Source: a virus (taxonomy: Duplodnaviria > Heunggongvirae > Uroviricota > Caudoviricetes). From it: a DNA stretch of 34,328 nucleotides. The notes beneath the pieces are model-generated. The model searched no databases, was not told where the DNA came from, and was given only the letters and a program-made list of their open reading frames with translations. The position numbers were made by a program, and so were the translations under genes. This document shows, in pieces, positions 1 through 34,328 of the stretch. The DNA is taken from IMG/VR virus record IMGVR_UViG_2526164597_000016. One strand, given 5' to 3'. Every line of letters starts with the position of its first letter. Within the stretch, counting starts at the first letter, position 1.

Positions 1-981
1 TTATAACGTCACTCCGCCTTTTAGAGGATTCAGCGCGACGGCATTTTGCAGGTAGTCAGGCGCAAGGTGCGCATAGGCCATCGTCTGCTGAATGCTCGCA
101 TGTCCCAGAATCTGTTGCAGTGCGATTATATTGCCCCCATTCATCATGAAATGGCTTGCGAATGTATGCCGCAGGATGTGGGTTGCCTGATTGGGTGGTA
201 TATCTGGCTTCACTCTGCGTAAAATCCCGCAAAACTTCTCATAATCAACTTTGAATAATTTAGCGCTGGCCTCCTCTTTAACTTTTTTCTCCAGTTCCTC
301 AGAAATCGGCACGGTTCGCTTTTTACCGTTTTTGGTTTTCAGGAAGGTAACCCTGCAATTTGTAATCTGTGCTGGTTTTAGCGTGGCAACTTCCGTCCAT
401 CTTCCTCCAGTGCTCAGACATAAAAGTGCGACAAGTAAGTCATCACCATCCAGAACATTTAACAGTTTTTCGATTTCTGCTTTTTCCAGGAACGTCATTT
501 CAGGGTTGGCCTCCGCCAGTGGCGGCAGTCCGTGAATTGGGTGTTGCCCGGAAAATTCATCCAATTGAATTAATTTTGTGAACATGCCGGATAATCGGTA
601 CATGTCACGGTTTATCGTTGCGGCACTGATACCATCACGTAGTCGCATGGAACGATAATCCATCAAAGCTCTTTTGCTCATCCGGCTCACTGGTATATCA
701 CCTATGCCGCTGATGGTTTTGAGCAGATGATTAAACTCTTTTGTTCCATGCTCGTGGTTTTGCCCGTGATATTTCCACCAGATGTCCAGCAACTCACTCA
801 AAGTTCTGCGATCTGCTCGCTGACCTGCCCATTCTTTCTGGCTGGCGTAGGCGATTGTGTATCGCTCAAATGCTACAGCCTCAGCTTTTCTTTCAAATTT
901 CCTGCGGATGCGTTTTCCGTCGCGACCGCGAGGTCTAATGTCCACTTCATAGCGTCCATCATCGAGCTTCTTAATTGACAT
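1..981 (-). CDS. int: Tyrosine integrase (P2 Int-like); start taken at internal ATG 979-981 preceded by GAGGG; alternative start at 1011
   Basis: Translation contains the tyrosine recombinase motifs HILRHTF (HxxR) and AYAHLAP (catalytic Tyr); N-terminus MSIKKLDDGRYEVDIRP resembles P2 Int; stop codon at 1-3. Confidence 0.85.
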   Translation of the reverse strand: MSIKKLDDGRYEVDIRPRGRDGKRIRRKFERKAEAVAFERYTIAYASQKEWAGQRADRRTLSELLDIWWKYHGQNHEHGTKEFNHLLKTISGIGDIPVSRMSKRALMDYRSMRLRDGISAATINRDMYRLSGMFTKLIQLDEFSGQHPIHGLPPLAEANPEMTFLEKAEIEKLLNVLDGDDLLVALLCLSTGGRWTEVATLKPAQITNCRVTFLKTKNGKKRTVPISEELEKKVKEEASAKLFKVDYEKFCGILRRVKPDIPPNQATHILRHTFASHFMMNGGNIIALQQILGHASIQQTMAYAHLAPDYLQNAVALNPLKGGVTL

Positions 982-1050
982 AAGAAAGCCCTCTGACGCT
1001 GTATTCACCATCTTGGTAACAAATGGTGAAAATGTAATGTTTATAGAGTG

Positions 1051-1344
1051 TTAACCAGTCTGTTTTTCGGAGTGGTCTGATTCTGTTGGTTTTTGCCCAA
1101 TGTGTGCGAGAGCCGGCGCGATCTGACCAGCTTGTGGTGACGTATCACCAGTCATTAACCAGAGCGTATATTTTTTAAATAAAGGCGTATTTGTGACTCG
1201 CATAACGATGCTGAGACCAGGGTCTTTATGCCCACTTTCGTAATTTTTGACTGTTCCTAGAGCTATCCCGCTAATTTCGCTGAATTTCGCCTGTGTTAAG
1301 CCTTCTGCTTTCCTAATCGCTTTCAGTTTTTCGAATGTCTGCAT
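1051..1344 (-). CDS. C: Immunity repressor (P2 C-like, HTH XRE-type)
   Basis: 97 aa; HTH-like segment LTQAKFSEISGIALGTVKNYESG; sits directly upstream of int and faces the cox gene, as in P2. Confidence 0.8.
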   Translation of the reverse strand: MQTFEKLKAIRKAEGLTQAKFSEISGIALGTVKNYESGHKDPGLSIVMRVTNTPLFKKYTLWLMTGDTSPQAGQIAPALAHIGQKPTESDHSEKQTG

Positions 1345-1496
1345 TTGACAGTAACCTATTGGTGACTTATATTCCCGTCAAAAGGTTGTGTATTGGTGAC
1401 CTTTTGAGTGTGTTAGCCAGTCCCTAGAAAGGACAGGGGCGACCTAGAAGGGACTGGATCTAATAAGGGTAACACGAAAGCAAAAAGGGCTAATCA
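1345..1496. promoter_or_regulatory. Lysis/lysogeny switch region with candidate early promoter Pe and operator repeats
   Basis: TTGACA 1345-1350, 17-bp spacer, TATATT 1368-1373 reading rightward toward cox; direct repeat TATTGGTGAC at 1358-1367 and 1391-1400; inverted repeat CAGTCCCT 1418-1425 / AGGGACTG 1449-1456 with nested direct CCTAGAA at 1422-1428 and 1443-1449. Confidence 0.55.
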
Positions 1497-1769
1497 ATGG
1501 AAGTCAATGACTATGTGATTCAGTACCCGATTGATGCGGTACATACGGTTAAGTTTGCAGAGTTACTTGGTAAGCCAGAAACGGCTGTAGTCAAGATGGT
1601 AAAAGAGAATAAATTGCCAGTTATTGAGCTTCGTGATCCAAGTAAGCCGAACGCTCGTGTCGGTGAGAAGTGGGTTTTCATTCCAGAGTTTAATCGCGCT
1701 GTACGAGAGGCGTTTTATAACCGACCAGTTGAACAGCGTGATGCATGGCTTTTGTGGATGGGGTTGTGA
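1497..1769 (+). CDS. cox: Cox/Apl-like excisionase and early-operon regulator
   Basis: 90 aa; first gene of the rightward early operon opposite the repressor; the size and position match P2 Cox. Confidence 0.7.
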   Translation: MEVNDYVIQYPIDAVHTVKFAELLGKPETAVVKMVKENKLPVIELRDPSKPNARVGEKWVFIPEFNRAVREAFYNRPVEQRDAWLLWMGL

Positions 1770-1771
1770 TT

Positions 1772-1942
1772 ATGAGTGAACCGCGTTGTATTGCTCAGTT
1801 ACTGCGTAACGAAAGCCCCAGGGCGATTGACTTCACCATCACCCACGGTAAGGGGCGTAAGGGAATCATTATCCGCACCAAAAAACAGAGTCCGTTAAAA
1901 AAGGCTCTGACCTTTCTGAAAAGCCGGAGGGTCTGGAAATGA
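1772..1942 (+). CDS. Small early protein (P2 orf78 position), start assumed at ATG 1772
   Basis: In-frame ATG immediately after the cox stop (TGAttATG); the stop overlaps the B start (ATGA); basic protein. Confidence 0.4.
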   Translation: MSEPRCIAQLLRNESPRAIDFTITHGKGRKGIIIRTKKQSPLKKALTFLKSRRVWK

Positions 1943-2439
1943 CAGTGATGACGCTCAATCTCGTTGAAAAACAGCCAGCAGCTATGCGCCGGATAATTGG
2001 TAAGCATCTTGCCGTTCCTCGCTGGCAGGAGACATGTGATTATTATAATCAGATGATGGAGCGCGAACGGCTAACGGTTTGCTTTCATGCGCAGTTAAAA
2101 CAGCGTCACGCAACGATGCGTTTTGAAGAAATGAACGACGTCGAACGTGAACGGCTGGTTTGTGCAATTGATGAATTGCGTGGTGCATTCTCAAAACGCC
2201 GTCAGGTTGGCGCAAGTGAGTATGCATATATTAGTTTTTTAACAGTCAGTCAGCGTCGCACTTTATTTATGCATGCCGGATTGACTGAAAAAGAATTCAA
2301 CCAGCCATACTGGCGAATTAATGAAGAGTCATGTTACTGGCGTGATGCTTTATTCCGTGCATTACGTGAATTATTCAGCCTGTTTGAGTATGCACCGACA
2401 ATTCTGACGTCGGTAAAACCAGAGCAATATCTGCATTAA
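1939..2439 (+). CDS. B: Replication protein B-like (P2 gpB, DnaB-helicase loader)
   Basis: 166 aa, identical length to P2 gpB; position between cox and A. Confidence 0.7.
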   Translation: MTVMTLNLVEKQPAAMRRIIGKHLAVPRWQETCDYYNQMMERERLTVCFHAQLKQRHATMRFEEMNDVERERLVCAIDELRGAFSKRRQVGASEYAYISFLTVSQRRTLFMHAGLTEKEFNQPYWRINEESCYWRDALFRALRELFSLFEYAPTILTSVKPEQYLH

Positions 2440-2502
2440 ATAATTAACCAGAGTTTTTAACGCACTTAATTGTGCGGGGCTTCTTTTTGCCTGGAGAAAG
2501 TC

Positions 2503-2727
2503 ATGCATACAGTTTCTGAAAATCAGTGCGGTAAATACGCATTACTGCTGCAACAGGCCAGAACCGAAGCACAGGCCGACGCTGCGACGCGCTTTTCTTC
2601 TCATCTTGACGCCATGATTCGCCACATCACAAAGGCGGAGTTATCCCGCGTGGAGATAGTAGAGCTGCTCAGTCAGGAGTCGGAAAAATTTCACAATATC
2701 GGATTGTCTCGCGGGGAGGTGCTTTGA
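2503..2727 (+). CDS. Early hypothetical protein (P2 orf80 position)
   Basis: ATG 2503 preceded by GGAG at 2490-2493; stop overlaps the next start (ATGA at 2724-2727). Confidence 0.5.
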
Positions 2728-3026
2728 TGTCCTGTTCTCATTCTGTTGTATTACTGAATAACGCCTTAAAAATCGCCGTTATGAAAAATGGCGATTTGTC
2801 TCTTATTCAACTTTGCCTTGATAAAGAAAAACGCGACATAACTGAATCTGTTATCGCAATTTATCAGAATGAATTAAACCTCCTGTCTGATGTGGTCAAT
2901 TTACTTGTTAAACGCGCTGTATTCCACAAGCAAATTTCCTCAGTGGATGAACTGACAAAATTAACGACAGAACTTGCCAGTTATTGCGCTGATGTATCCA
3001 GAAAACTTAACGATAAAAGGAGCTGA
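2724..3026 (+). CDS. Early hypothetical protein (P2 orf81 position)
   Basis: 100-aa ORF translationally coupled to its neighbours; AGGAG precedes the next gene. Confidence 0.5.
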
Positions 3027-3028
3027 TA

Positions 3029-3253
3029 ATGCCGGACAACGTAGATTTTATTCAGGAACAACAGGCTGAATTACTGGAGCGGCAGATTAACGCGGCAAGG
3101 GTAAAACATTGCGGTGCTTCTGCGCTGGTTTGCGAAGAGTGTGACGCGCCAATACCTGCTGCCCGTCGTGCGGCTTATCCGTCAGCCACGCGTTGTGTTT
3201 CCTGTCAGTCAGTCTTTGAAGCAAAAAACAAACATTACCGGAGAACGGCATGA
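3029..3253 (+). CDS. TraR/DksA-family C4 zinc-finger protein (P2 orf82 position)
   Basis: 74 aa with CGASALVCEEC ... CVSC four-cysteine arrangement typical of TraR/DksA C4 zinc fingers. Confidence 0.65.
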   Translation: MPDNVDFIQEQQAELLERQINAARVKHCGASALVCEECDAPIPAARRAAYPSATRCVSCQSVFEAKNKHYRRTA

Positions 3254-31726: not shown

Positions 31727-32889
31727 TGCTGGATGCACTGACATTTGATGCAGGCAGTACGCTGACGCCGGATTACATGCTGATGCTCGACAGCAGGGAT
31801 ATTACCGGCAATATCAGCGACCGTCTGATGAGTATGACCCTGACGGATAACCGGGGTTTTGAGGCTGACCAGCTTGATATTGAACTGAACGATGCCGACG
31901 GGCAGGTCGGGCTGCCGGTTCGTGGCGCTGTCCTGACGGTGTATATCGGCTGGAAAGGTTTTGCCCTGGTATGCAAAGGGAAATTCACCGTTGATGAGGT
32001 TGAACACCGGGGCGTGCCGGATGTGGTCACCATCCGCGCCCGGAGTGCAGATTTCCGCGGGACGCTCAATTCCCGCCGTGAAGGTTCCTGGCATGACACC
32101 ACGCTCGGTGCGATTGTTGAGGCGATAGCCTCCCGTAACAGGCTGGAAGCCAGTGTCGCTCCGTCACTGGCCGGAATTAAAATCCCGCACATCGACCAGT
32201 CGCAGGAGTCTGATGCGAAATTCCTGACCCGTCTTGCAGAACGCAACGGCGGTGAGGTGTCGGTAAAAATGGGAAAATTGTTGTTTCTCAAAGCGGGGCA
32301 GGGGGTGACGGCCAGCGGTAAGAAAATCCCGCAGGTCACCATCACCCGCAGCGACGGCGACCGTCATCATTTTGCGATTGCTGACCGTGGAGCCTACACC
32401 GGCGTAACGGCAAAGTGGTTACACACCAAAGACCCGAAGCCGCAAAAGCAGAAGGTAAAACTGAAACGCAAAAAGAAAGAAAAACACCTGCGCGCACTGG
32501 AGCACCCGAAAGCGAAACCGGTCAGGCAGAAGATAGCGCCCAAAGTGCCGGAAGCGCGCGAAGGTGAATACATGGCCGGTGAGGCTGATAACGTTTTTGC
32601 CCTGACCACGGTATATGCCACGAAAGCACAGGCCATGCGCGCCGCTCAGGCGAAGTGGGACAAACTGCAACGGGGCGTTGCGGAGTTCTCCATCAGCCTT
32701 GCCACTGGTCGGGCTGATATTTACACGGAAACGCCGGTCAGAGTGTCAGGCTTTAAGCGCGTCATAGACGAGCAGGACTGGACAATCACTAAGGTGACAC
32801 ATTTTCTGAATAATAGCGGCTTCACGACGTCCTTGGAGCTTGAGGTCAGGCTTTCTGATGTGGAGTACGAAACAGAAGATGATGAGTGA
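31726..32889 (+). CDS. D: Tail protein D (late control gene D)
   Basis: 387 aa, same as P2 gpD; TAATG coupling with U. Confidence 0.85.
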   Translation: MLDALTFDAGSTLTPDYMLMLDSRDITGNISDRLMSMTLTDNRGFEADQLDIELNDADGQVGLPVRGAVLTVYIGWKGFALVCKGKFTVDEVEHRGVPDVVTIRARSADFRGTLNSRREGSWHDTTLGAIVEAIASRNRLEASVAPSLAGIKIPHIDQSQESDAKFLTRLAERNGGEVSVKMGKLLFLKAGQGVTASGKKIPQVTITRSDGDRHHFAIADRGAYTGVTAKWLHTKDPKPQKQKVKLKRKKKEKHLRALEHPKAKPVRQKIAPKVPEAREGEYMAGEADNVFALTTVYATKAQAMRAAQAKWDKLQRGVAEFSISLATGRADIYTETPVRVSGFKRVIDEQDWTITKVTHFLNNSGFTTSLELEVRLSDVEYETEDDE

Positions 32890-32970
32890 TGTTTTTATTT
32901 TATCTATTTGTTTTATAAGGATAAATTAACTAGAATGGCACTATCAACAAAACCGGAAGAGGTGCTCGCG

Positions 32971-33189
32971 ATGTTTCATTGTCCTTTATGCCAGCATGCC
33001 GCACATGCGCGTACAAGCCGCTATATCACTGACACGACAAAAGAGCGTTATCACCAGTGTCAGAACGTGAATTGCAGCGCCACGTTCATCACCTATGAGT
33101 CGGTACAGAGATACATCGTGAAGCCGGGAGAAGTCCACGCCGTAAGGCCGCACCCGTTGCCGTCAGGGCAGCAAATTATGTGGATGTGA
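32971..33189 (+). CDS. ogr: Late gene transcriptional activator Ogr (zinc finger)
   Basis: 72 aa from MFHCPLCQHAAHARTSRY...; CPLC ... CQNVNC zinc-binding cysteines; last phage gene before att. Confidence 0.85.
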   Translation: MFHCPLCQHAAHARTSRYITDTTKERYHQCQNVNCSATFITYESVQRYIVKPGEVHAVRPHPLPSGQQIMWM

Positions 33190-33199
33190 TCACAAAAAT

Positions 33200-33227
33200 A
33201 GCCCCTCAGTTGAGGGGCTTTATTTAT
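33200..33227 (+). terminator. Rho-independent terminator after ogr
   Basis: AGCCCCTC 33200-33207, loop AGTT, GAGGGGCT 33212-33219, followed by TTATTTAT. Confidence 0.7.
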
Positions 33228-33232
33228 GGTCG

Positions 33233-33251
33233 ATGTGGACGCTATGTGGAC
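33233..33251 (+). promoter_or_regulatory. Direct repeats ATGTGGAC x2, candidate integrase arm-type binding sites in the phage arm of attR
   Basis: Identical 8-mers at 33233-33240 and 33244-33251, about one helical turn apart, between ogr and host DNA. Confidence 0.4.
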
Positions 33252-33317
33252 AGCGGTTGACATAAATCCATTTATATCATCAGGTTAGGTGCTTTTTTGT
33301 GACACCATCCCTGTCTT

Positions 33318-33344
33318 CCCCCACATGATGTGGGGGTTTTTTTT
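33318..33344 (+). terminator. Strong rho-independent terminator (probably host-side, or overlapping the att core)
   Basis: CCCCCACAT-G-ATGTGGGGG (33318-33336) followed by T8 (33337-33344). Confidence 0.7.
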
Positions 33345-33425
33345 ATCCTCAATTTGCCTGCTGCTTAATGCATTGCAGATGATTTGCTTCCGTTATACTA
33401 GCGTCAGTTGATAGCGGGAGTATTT

Positions 33426-34328
33426 ATGAATCAATCTTATGGACGGCTGGTCAGTCGGGCGGCGATTGCTGCGACGGCGATGGCTTCGTTGCTATTGCTG
33501 ATTAAAATTTTTGCATGGTGGTATACCGGGTCGGTGAGTATTCTCGCCGCGCTGGTGGATTCGCTGGTGGATATCGGCGCGTCGTTGACGAATTTACTGG
33601 TGGTGCGATATTCCCTGCAACCTGCCGACGATAATCACTCGTTTGGTCACGGTAAAGCAGAGTCCCTCGCGGCGCTGGCGCAAAGTATGTTTATCTCCGG
33701 TTCGGCACTATTCCTGTTTTTGACGGGTATTCAACATCTGATATCTCCAACACCGATGACAGATCCAGGCGTCGGGGTTATCGTGACAATTGTGGCGCTA
33801 ATTTGTACGATTATCCTTGTCTCGTTTCAGCGTTGGGTGGTGCGCCGGACGCAAAGCCAGGCGGTGCGGGCTGATATGCTACATTACCAGTCTGATGTTA
33901 TGATGAACGGCGCAATTCTGCTGGCGCTGGGGTTGTCCTGGTACGGCTGGCATCGCGCCGATGCTCTGTTTGCATTGGGAATCGGCATCTATATTTTATA
34001 TAGCGCGTTACGCATGGGATATGAGGCGGTACAGTCATTACTGGATCGCGCATTGCCTGATGAGGAACGGCAAGAAATTATTGATATCGTGACTTCCTGG
34101 CCGGGTGTTAGCGGCGCTCACGATCTTCGCACGCGGCAGTCAGGGCCGACCCGCTTTATTCAGATTCATTTGGAAATGGAAGACTCTCTGCCTTTGGTTC
34201 AGGCACATATGGTGGCGGATCAGGTAGAGCAGGCTATTTTACGGCGTTTTCCGGGATCGGATGTGATTATCCATCAGGACCCCTGTTCCGTCGTACCCAG
34301 GGAGGGTAAACGGTCTATGCTTTCATAA
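33426..34328 (+). CDS. fieF: Host cation-efflux pump FieF (YiiP), CDF family, complete
   Basis: 300 aa, [35 protein letters not shown] ... [15 protein letters not shown], recognised as enterobacterial FieF; the ORF-track start at 33408 is an upstream extension. Confidence 0.9.

Follow-up and report, generated by a model that had tools for sequence, protein, structure and literature searches.

Where does the DNA of a prophage that ends just upstream of the host gene fieF stop, and what has become of the small RNA (sRNA) encoded at this place? We studied this question in a stretch of 34,328 nucleotides, the IMG/VR virus record IMGVR_UViG_2526164597_000016 (below, "the window" means this whole stretch). 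The window contains the integrase gene int, then a complete P2-like gene set up to ogr, and then host fieF. The sRNA in question, CpxQ, reportedly originates from the 3' untranslated region (3'UTR) of cpxP, as described by Chao and Vogel and by Grabowicz and co-authors in 2016. An original prediction, made from the letters of the window, placed the right prophage junction (attR) next to fieF and raised the possibility that integration had occurred in or beside the 3' end of CpxQ.

We are highly confident that positions 33190-33425 are the attR (P-O-B') of a WPhi-type P2-like prophage at its usual site between cpxP and fieF, and nothing contradicts this assignment. The core shared by phage and host lies inside CpxQ. 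In related lysogens, the sRNA is rebuilt at the other end of the prophage (attL), and its 3' part there is of phage origin.

Limits of the junction and the common core

A query of 451 bp across the region found matches in 5426 of 5426 complete Escherichia coli genomes. Most of the matches covered only query positions 152-451, i.e., the window from 33301 rightward, and cpxP stood directly upstream of them. These empty cpxP-fieF sites, which align from 33301 rightward, set the left limit of the core. They occur in 4591 of the 5426 genomes (84.6%) with the colinear order cpxP-core-fieF, and the window is colinear with them from 33301 through fieF at 99-100% identity. A WPhi-type attR is found in about 14.5-15% of the genomes (~790 lysogens).

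The right limit, 33347, is set by free phages (WPhi, R18C, L-413C and others), which match up to this position and then run into int. The ogr-side sequence is matched by 94 phage records, and the free phage genomes among them match to 33347. The core itself is present in 62 phage records. In free phages, including WPhi (AY135739), R18C, L-413C and FSL SP-004, the whole 47 bp lies between ogr and int. The overlap of the empty-site and free-phage matches thus defines 33301-33347 as the common core, and the junction next to fieF is where it was predicted. A five-way alignment of attB, attL, attR and two attP gives the classical att pattern; the core of WPhi attP is the same as that of the empty E. 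coli site and of attL in related lysogens. The features of the junction, all on the plus strand, are as follows.

33200..33227 (+): intrinsic terminator of ogr and the late operon; hairpin 33200-33219 with an 8-bp stem, then the interrupted T tract TTATTTAT
33233-33240 and 33244-33251 (+): two direct arm-type Int repeats ATGTGGAC in the P arm, 11 bp from start to start
33261..33300 (+): probable IHF-bending region of the P arm, to which the P2 IHF feature maps by alignment
33301..33347 (+): common core (O), 47 bp, GACACCATCCCTGTCTTCCCCCACATGATGTGGGGGTTTTTTTTATC, identical in attP, attB, attL and attR
33301..33344 (+): 5'-truncated copy of CpxQ (nt 15-58 of 58), without seed nt 1-14 and detached from cpxP
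33305..33311 (+): candidate strand-exchange overlap CCATCCC, flanked by the inverted repeat GACA (33301-33304) / TGTC (33312-33315)
33318..33344 (+): CpxQ/cpxP intrinsic terminator between ogr and fieF; 8-bp GC-rich stem, 3-nt loop, U8
33328 (+): polymorphic nucleotide in the terminator loop (CpxQ nt 42), with A in the window and C in MG1655; a natural crossover marker
33348..33425 (+): host B' arm, the unaltered fieF upstream region, with TATACT at 33394-33399 and GGGAG at 33416-33420

Phage-only sequence stops 125 bp before fieF, and the shared core stops 78 bp before it. The earlier statement that the prophage ends within about 230 bp of fieF was counted from the ogr stop codon.

The checks proposed with the original prediction included an alignment to an uninfected cpxP-fieF region and a search for a duplicated core to the left of position 1. 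The alignment is colinear from 33301 and puts the core inside CpxQ. As for the second check, position 1 of the window is the final base of the int stop codon, and attL lies outside the window, as had been stated. We therefore used the near-identical lysogen APEC O2-211 in place of the window strain. Its attL carries the cpxP 3'UTR, the same 47 bp, and the WPhi P' arm with GTGTGGACACTATGTGGACAC, a pair of repeats that ends 13 bp before the int stop codon. Judged from this genome, the attL core lies 116-162 bp to the left of position 1, i.e., the window is 115 bp short of it. The attL of the window strain is expected to consist of the cpxP 3'UTR, the 47-bp core with A in the loop, and a P' arm with GTGTGGACACTATGTGGAC.

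The core is a part of CpxQ

The RefSeq annotation of MG1655 describes cpxQ (b4716) as a gene of 58 nt that starts 10 nt past the cpxP stop codon and ends at the U8 tract. By this annotation the core starts at CpxQ nt 15 and runs 3 nt past nt 58. CpxQ is known to begin with U, its U7 pairs with nhaB, and C11 belongs to the 5' seed (PMC10250213, PMC6755755); the RefSeq numbering accords with all three. Thus the empty sites and the MG1655 annotation bear out that cpxP is upstream of fieF and that CpxQ ends at the terminator in front of fieF. Of the two suggested positions of integration, in or beside the 3' end of the sRNA, the first is correct.

In the fold of CpxQ (-17.4 kcal/mol), nt 14-30 form the hairpin AGACA-CCAUCCC-UGUCU and nt 32-50 form the terminator, with U8 behind it. 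Positions 33301-33344 of the window are identical to nt 15-58, which comprise the first hairpin, the terminator and U8. The terminator with U8, which is the Hfq-binding 3' end, is therefore present at attR: the stem-loop occupies 33318-33336 and T8 occupies 33337-33344, and this terminator is much stronger than the ogr hairpin. The 5' seed (nt 1-14, UUUUCCUUGCCAUA, including U7 and C11) is absent from attR; the phage sequence GGTGCTTTTTTGT stands in its place upstream of nt 15. Also absent are the cpxP promoter and the cpxP 3'UTR with its RNase E processing context, as the copy is preceded not by cpxP but by phage DNA (ogr and the P arm). The copy at attR is hence a remnant rather than a CpxQ gene; the one that functions is at attL.

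In the attL junctions that were read directly, the complete cpxP 3'UTR is rebuilt. This is possible because the phage carries a copy of the CpxQ part that is identical or differs in one loop nucleotide. A copy covering at least 80% of a 70-nt query (cpxP 3'UTR plus core) is retained in 5426 of 5426 genomes.

Two of the earlier suggestions hold in part. The second terminator was suspected to be host sequence. It is indeed the cpxP/CpxQ terminator by the RefSeq annotation of cpxQ, but it is carried by free phages as well. The prophage was also suspected to alter or replace a part of the sRNA. The tail is physically replaced, but "alter" is too strong a word for a copy that is identical or differs in one loop nucleotide.

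Rfam at gathering thresholds gave nothing in the window, and no family named CpxQ matched. Below the threshold, the family RF02628 (Hrs1) matched in the reverse orientation, with 44.5 bits at an intact site (L001 1472-1544, minus strand) and 31.8 bits at attR (window 33278-33344, minus strand). According to its source paper, hrs1 has the same orientation as cpxP and fieF and lies between them. The published strand and the reverse-only match together indicate that Hrs1 is the Erwinia homologue of CpxQ and that the Rfam model appears to be reverse-complemented.

The P arm

Two terminators were predicted between ogr and fieF, and a terminator scan called both hairpins (3 terminator-like sites against 0.7 expected in shuffles), the second of them exactly at 33318-33344. 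The first one, the hairpin 33200-33219 with its T tract, qualifies as an intrinsic terminator, though its tract is weak and interrupted. The segment 33190-33232 folds with -16.7 kcal/mol (z -4.1). The P2 feature described as the rho-independent terminator for the ogr transcript and F operon maps to 33198-33221 by alignment.

The next element of the arm is the pair of ATGTGGAC repeats, which had been proposed as plausible arm-type Int sites. This proposal is well supported by comparison with P2: the consensus of arm repeats of P2-type integrases is tgTGGaCa (Nilsson et al., PMC3448106), and the P2 protein_bind footprint "Int P arm" maps to 33230-33257 by alignment. The same pair is found in WPhi attP, and a matching pair, GTGTGGACACTATGTGGACAC, is on the P' arm in WPhi attP and attL, so each arm has at least two direct repeats. 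The window holds a single ATGTGGACNNNATGTGGAC, the composite of the tandem ATGTGGAC, where 0.01 would be expected by chance (shuffles). We rejected the count of the bare 7-mer TGTGGAC as evidence, as it is not enriched (3 found, 3.9 expected). The case for Int sites therefore rests on the tandem arrangement and the homology to P2, not on the motif count.

Positions 33261-33300 are the probable IHF region of the P arm, judging by the mapped P2 feature. The best match to the IHF consensus, TATCATCAGGTTA at 33275-33287, has 12 of 13 positions in agreement with WATCARNNNNTTR, i.e., one mismatch. From 33230 to 33300 the arm differs from that of WPhi by two substitutions only (33255 C/T and 33262 C/T), and the core is identical.

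We also considered TTGACA at 33257-33262 as a part of a promoter. It is a perfect -35 box, but there is no usable -10 box at 16-18 bp from it, and we read it as a part of the IHF region or the arm. No sigma-70 consensus promoter was found on the plus strand within 32850-33500, which includes the segment between ogr and the core and the region upstream of fieF.

The side of strand exchange

One position of the core is polymorphic in E. coli. CpxQ nt 42 (33328), the third loop nucleotide of the terminator, is C in about a quarter of E. coli genomes. A 3'UTR query with the A allele matched 4108 genomes at 99% identity or higher; 1317 genomes fell into the 95-99% band, which corresponds to one mismatch. 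In the two genomes of this band that we read, the mismatch was C at the loop base 33328. All phage att cores that were read have A in the loop, and 51 of the 62 phage records are at least 99% identical to the A-allele core.

The two junctions of lysogens differ in this respect. An attR query with C in the loop matched at least 60 lysogens at 100% identity, and second-place match counts that require a C-allele core put the total at ~165 genomes. For attL, we ran C-allele queries with either of two P' arm types, which found 530 and 262 lysogens; there was no perfect C-allele attL among these ~792 lysogens, the best identity being 99.1%. Direct reading gave A at attL in four of four lysogens (M217, Sanji, CFS3273 and O157:H16 98-3133), which span two P' arm types. 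The attR of M217, Sanji and CFS3273 has C according to 100% matches to the C-allele query. In O157:H16 98-3133, which has a different P' arm, both junctions were read directly, with A at attL and C at attR.

The simplest reading of these alleles is that strands are exchanged to the left of 33328, between 33301 and 33327, i.e., in the left 27 bp of the core. If the phage carries A, the host carries A or C, and the exchange is left of 33328, then attL receives the right half of the phage core and attR keeps that of the host. The alleles thus show that the cpxP-linked CpxQ tail in lysogens is phage-derived, while attR retains the host half. By the loop marker, the replaced part includes at least nt 42-58; it probably reaches from about nt 25 to the 3' end. 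In this way the natural A/C marker of E. coli locates the strand exchange without an experiment.

Another explanation of attR with C would be that some phages carry C and that their crossover takes place to the right of the loop. It predicts C in ~29% of attL, but no such attL was seen among ~792 lysogens and every phage core that was inspected has A; we rejected it. The variant core of phage ev239, with C in the T tract, could have served as a second crossover marker. It was set aside, as the E. coli collection contains no ev239-type lysogens; only arm remnants with 78% identity were found there.

Within the left part of the core, the inverted repeat GACA/TGTC with a 7-nt spacer coincides with the first hairpin of CpxQ and lies at the far left of the identity block. 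The spacer CCATCCC is a candidate overlap, and the repeats may be the core-type sites.

Several points weigh against this reading as a whole. The attL of the window strain lies outside the window, and its state is presumed to be that of near-identical lysogens. Binding of Int and IHF is likewise suggested by homology to the P2 annotation. The lysogens are partly clonal, so clonal inheritance inflates the raw allele counts; the allele pattern represents at least two independent integrations. In particular, M217 and Sanji share a prophage disrupted by ISEc12 (IS21 family), which hit the replication endonuclease gene (L018 3083-7948, L019 3357-8222), and this prophage is probably immobilised and clonally inherited. 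Finally, the search of attL excludes only perfect C-allele junctions, and a C-allele attL with a second mismatch would escape notice.

With these reservations, integration of the WPhi-type prophage would proceed as follows. Int would bridge arm and core sites, and IHF would bend the P arm. The exchange of strands would take place to the left of 33328, close to where the core begins and probably around CCATCCC. The host-left and phage-right halves would form attL, with a complete CpxQ whose tail is phage DNA. The phage-left and host-right halves would form attR, with the seedless CpxQ remnant and the terminator just before fieF. The logic would be the same as in tRNA-targeting phages, which carry the 3' end of the target gene. 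The attR would then be a substrate for excision dependent on Int, IHF and Cox. Hints of recombination activity at the site are the numbers of lysogens and empty sites (~790 and 4591), circular or free phage forms, and tandem lysogens.

Possible consequences for the host

Lysogeny in K-12-type hosts (the C allele) changes one loop nucleotide of CpxQ. The window has A at attR, which suggests an A-allele host and an unchanged CpxQ sequence in this strain. The terminator and the 78-bp fieF upstream region are kept in lysogens; the transcription unit before the terminator switches from cpxP to ogr and the late operon.

Could the insertion nevertheless change host physiology measurably, through the regulation of CpxQ or fieF? 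We consider such lysogenic conversion unlikely. Its possible routes are a swap of the CpxQ tail (C42 to A in K-12-type hosts, or variant cores), separation of fieF from the strongly Cpx-induced cpxP transcript, and antisense transcription from Pc through C and int into CpxQ. In favour of the first route, the tail at attL is phage-derived and differs in one loop nucleotide in C-allele hosts, and altered phage cores exist. The core of SEN5 (L011) has GTGGGGT, in which the last stem G is lost through a G-to-T change; in ev239 (L012), the T tract of the core is interrupted by a C. With the crossover at the position that the data indicate, lysogens of SEN5 and ev239 would carry an altered CpxQ terminator. 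The antisense route is consistent with the observation that no minus-strand intrinsic terminator was found at attL between the int stop codon and the core (L014 1086-1200), so that C-int transcripts from Pc in lysogens could extend antisense into CpxQ and cpxP. As to fieF, no consensus promoter was called in the 78 bp left upstream of it.

However, the A/C position belongs to the loop of the terminator hairpin, and either allele is common among non-lysogens (4108 genomes match the A-allele query, and 1317 are in the one-mismatch band), which argues for neutrality of this replacement. Besides, fieF is preceded by the same strong terminator in lysogens and non-lysogens. The host sequence from 33348 on matches that of empty sites: the intact site L001 is identical to the window over 33348-33400, and single-nucleotide polymorphisms between strains start only at 33360.

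A broader form of this idea would make WPhi-type phages allele-replacing vectors for a conserved stress sRNA, with tail changes that alter the output of CpxQ and the Cpx regulon. We find it improbable. If true, it would mean that termination, Hfq binding and stability of CpxQ change, i.e., that conversion acts via an sRNA tail. The causes would be the C42-to-A replacement, cores of the SEN5 and ev239 kinds, convergent Pc-int transcription at attL, and the uncoupling of fieF from cpxP read-through.

Even less probable, in our opinion, is that read-through from ogr or the late operon expresses the CpxQ remnant of attR or attP as a seedless Hfq-binding decoy or a chimeric sRNA. The ogr terminator may leak because of its interrupted U tract; the first hairpin, the terminator and U8 are kept, and the core is retained in the 62 phage records, which belong to several genera of Peduoviridae. 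However, this retention is fully explained by the role of the core in recombination. No promoter-like site was found on the plus strand between ogr and the core, and the remnant lacks the seed (nt 1-14) that serves for nhaB and cfa. Nor do phage lineages share a conserved sequence 5' of the core, contrary to what would be expected of a seed.

There is next to no chance that the second terminator is purely host sequence and that integration took place beside the sRNA, with a true short core elsewhere in 33226-33317: this was reasonable from the window alone, and attR is indeed host-derived to the right of the crossover, but in free phages the hairpin and T8 are present as a part of the complete 47 bp.

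Relation to known att sites

The reading of 33190-33425 as a WPhi-type attR agrees with what is known of such phages. There is nothing unusual about the element itself, a further WPhi-type prophage at a published site with a textbook P2-type att architecture. It does not differ in kind from WPhi (Peduovirus Wphi) or from Wphi1 of E. coli W, which have the same module at the same site. Ahlgren-Berg and co-authors reportedly gave the primary description of WPhi attB in 2009, and are said to have noted at 88.6 min an identity of 47 nt, the same length as that of the core found here. In the paper on the E. coli W genome, cpxP-fieF is given as the insertion site of the P2-type Wphi1 (PMC3032704). 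The coordinate of WPhi attB in MG1655 is 4104392 (Nilsson et al., PMC3448106), and L-413C shares the WPhi core (PMC3448106). A prophage of Shiga toxin-producing E. coli O157 and PhiESI of Salmonella Infantis have also been reported between cpxP and fieF.

In P2 attP (AF063097), the order from ogr to int is the terminator, the Int P arm, IHF, the core, Cox, and the Int P' arm. The order and spacing of elements are the same here, and ogr, the terminator, the arm repeats and the A/T-rich IHF block align (the annotated features at 33198-33300). The core is unrelated. P2 has a 27-bp core, AAAAAATAAGCCCGTGTAAGGGAGATT, and uses other loci, and the alignment over the core has 18 identities in 57 positions. 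The WPhi-type core is longer (47 bp) and rebuilds the 3' end of an RNA gene.

In this respect, WPhi-type phages resemble elements that target tRNA, transfer-messenger RNA (tmRNA) or sRNA genes. Phage 186 integrates in tRNA-Ile, and Fels-2 and SopEPhi integrate in ssrA. The rybB noncoding RNA, cyaR RNA and ssrA are listed as sites of P2-type phages or islands (PMC3032704), and long cores that keep tRNA genes intact have been described (PMC3448106). Like these elements, a WPhi-type phage carries the 3' part of an RNA gene, which is rebuilt at attL; the identity block extends from the crossover to the end of the gene, and the dyad of an RNA hairpin lies at the likely crossover. Unlike them, it targets not a free-standing gene but an sRNA that is derived from a 3'UTR and processed by RNase E. 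P2-type integrases have been treated as inserting "between other genes" in a paper (PMC3448106) that predates the discovery of CpxQ in 2016.

Thus the "intergenic" attB of WPhi is the body and terminator of CpxQ, which adds a 3'UTR-derived sRNA to the RNA genes that phages target and rebuild. This position of attB explains the length of the 47-bp core. It also explains the exact conservation of the site across many genera of Enterobacteriaceae, through which a wide range of hosts is open to these phages; the 42-nt core is found exactly in 115 stretches of a one-genome-per-species set, in many genera of this family. None of the CpxQ-containing papers in the literature searched also contained "prophage" together with "attachment site", and "integrase" occurs there beside "CpxQ" only in a lambda-att cloning step. 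The insertion site between cpxP and fieF is already published; its overlap with CpxQ appears to be unremarked in the same literature, and is a point at the level of annotation that falls under a well-known principle. It has a practical side, since the WPhi Int site is used as a landing pad for engineering with pIT5 plasmids (PMC12765450). Those who use pIT5 to study envelope stress place the insert directly behind a tail-replaced CpxQ and upstream of fieF.

Genes of the window and prophage identity

The genes next to the two prophage ends are listed below.

1..981 (-): int, prophage tyrosine integrase, partner of the att site at the opposite end of the window; Pfam Int_N and Phage_integrase
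32971..33189 (+): ogr, late-gene activator, the last phage gene before attR; Pfam Ogr_Delta, E 1e-21
33426..34328 (+): fieF, host metal exporter of the cation diffusion facilitator family, ATG at 33426; Pfam Cation_efflux and ZT_dimer, RefSeq annotation

The cognate tyrosine integrase is thus encoded at the far end of the prophage, adjoining the attL side. It is identical to WPhi Int in 325 of 326 amino acids (99.7%). The int open reading frame has 10 extra codons to an upstream ATG (window 982-1011, minus strand), which would give 336 amino acids. The shorter start MSIKKL (326 amino acids), annotated for WPhi and in RefSeq, fits all relatives. Ogr is a zinc-finger protein of 72 amino acids, whose gene is called ogrK in matching genomes.

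Positions 32900-33347 are 97-99% identical to WPhi, R18C, L-413C, fiAA91-ss and many other Peduoviridae. The attR of NZ_AP022036.1 is 100% identical to that of the window, but its prophage is shorter. APEC O2-211 has a near-identical prophage, in which the first 2.5 kb (the int-cox region) is 100% identical to the window; on the host side there are nine differences, two upstream of fieF and seven inside it.

In some relatives, e.g., E. coli 23CRST027 (L027 291-698) and L002 (1690-2337), ogr and the P arm are separated by a hypothetical minus-strand gene. Its length varies between phages from 408 to 714 bp, and it is not present in the window. This place looks like a variable cargo slot.

Other elements at the same site

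A few E. coli genomes have other P2-like elements at the same core, with an Int that is 68% identical and with arm repeats TGTAGAC in place of TGTGGAC. In this integrase lineage the core identity is 45 bp long and starts at 33303 (L002 2400-2660, L011, L013). It is represented in Salmonella phage SEN5, Enterobacter phage phiT5282H and a 32-kb circular E. coli "plasmid", which is in fact a P2-like phage in circular form.

In E. coli SZQ1 (L028, NZ_CP173996.1 4586989-4592247), the chromosome has the order D, ogr, a cargo gene, an attP-like junction, int, C and cox. This gene order with an attP-like junction on the chromosome indicates two P2-like prophages in tandem at cpxP-fieF. The genome of Citrobacter amalonaticus P55 has the exact CpxQ core twice within a short distance, only 1.8 kb apart (L062 1047-1088 and 2885-2926), which could be a prophage remnant or a small element integrated at the same site.

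The E. coli CpxQ core is present in fifteen records of "Yersinia" phages (L-413C, vB_YpM_22, HQ103, P37 and others). At the time of an earlier study (PMC3448106), the available Yersinia genome sequences had yielded no matching attB. Together, these two observations suggest that the lysogenic hosts of such phages are Enterobacteriaceae such as E. coli.

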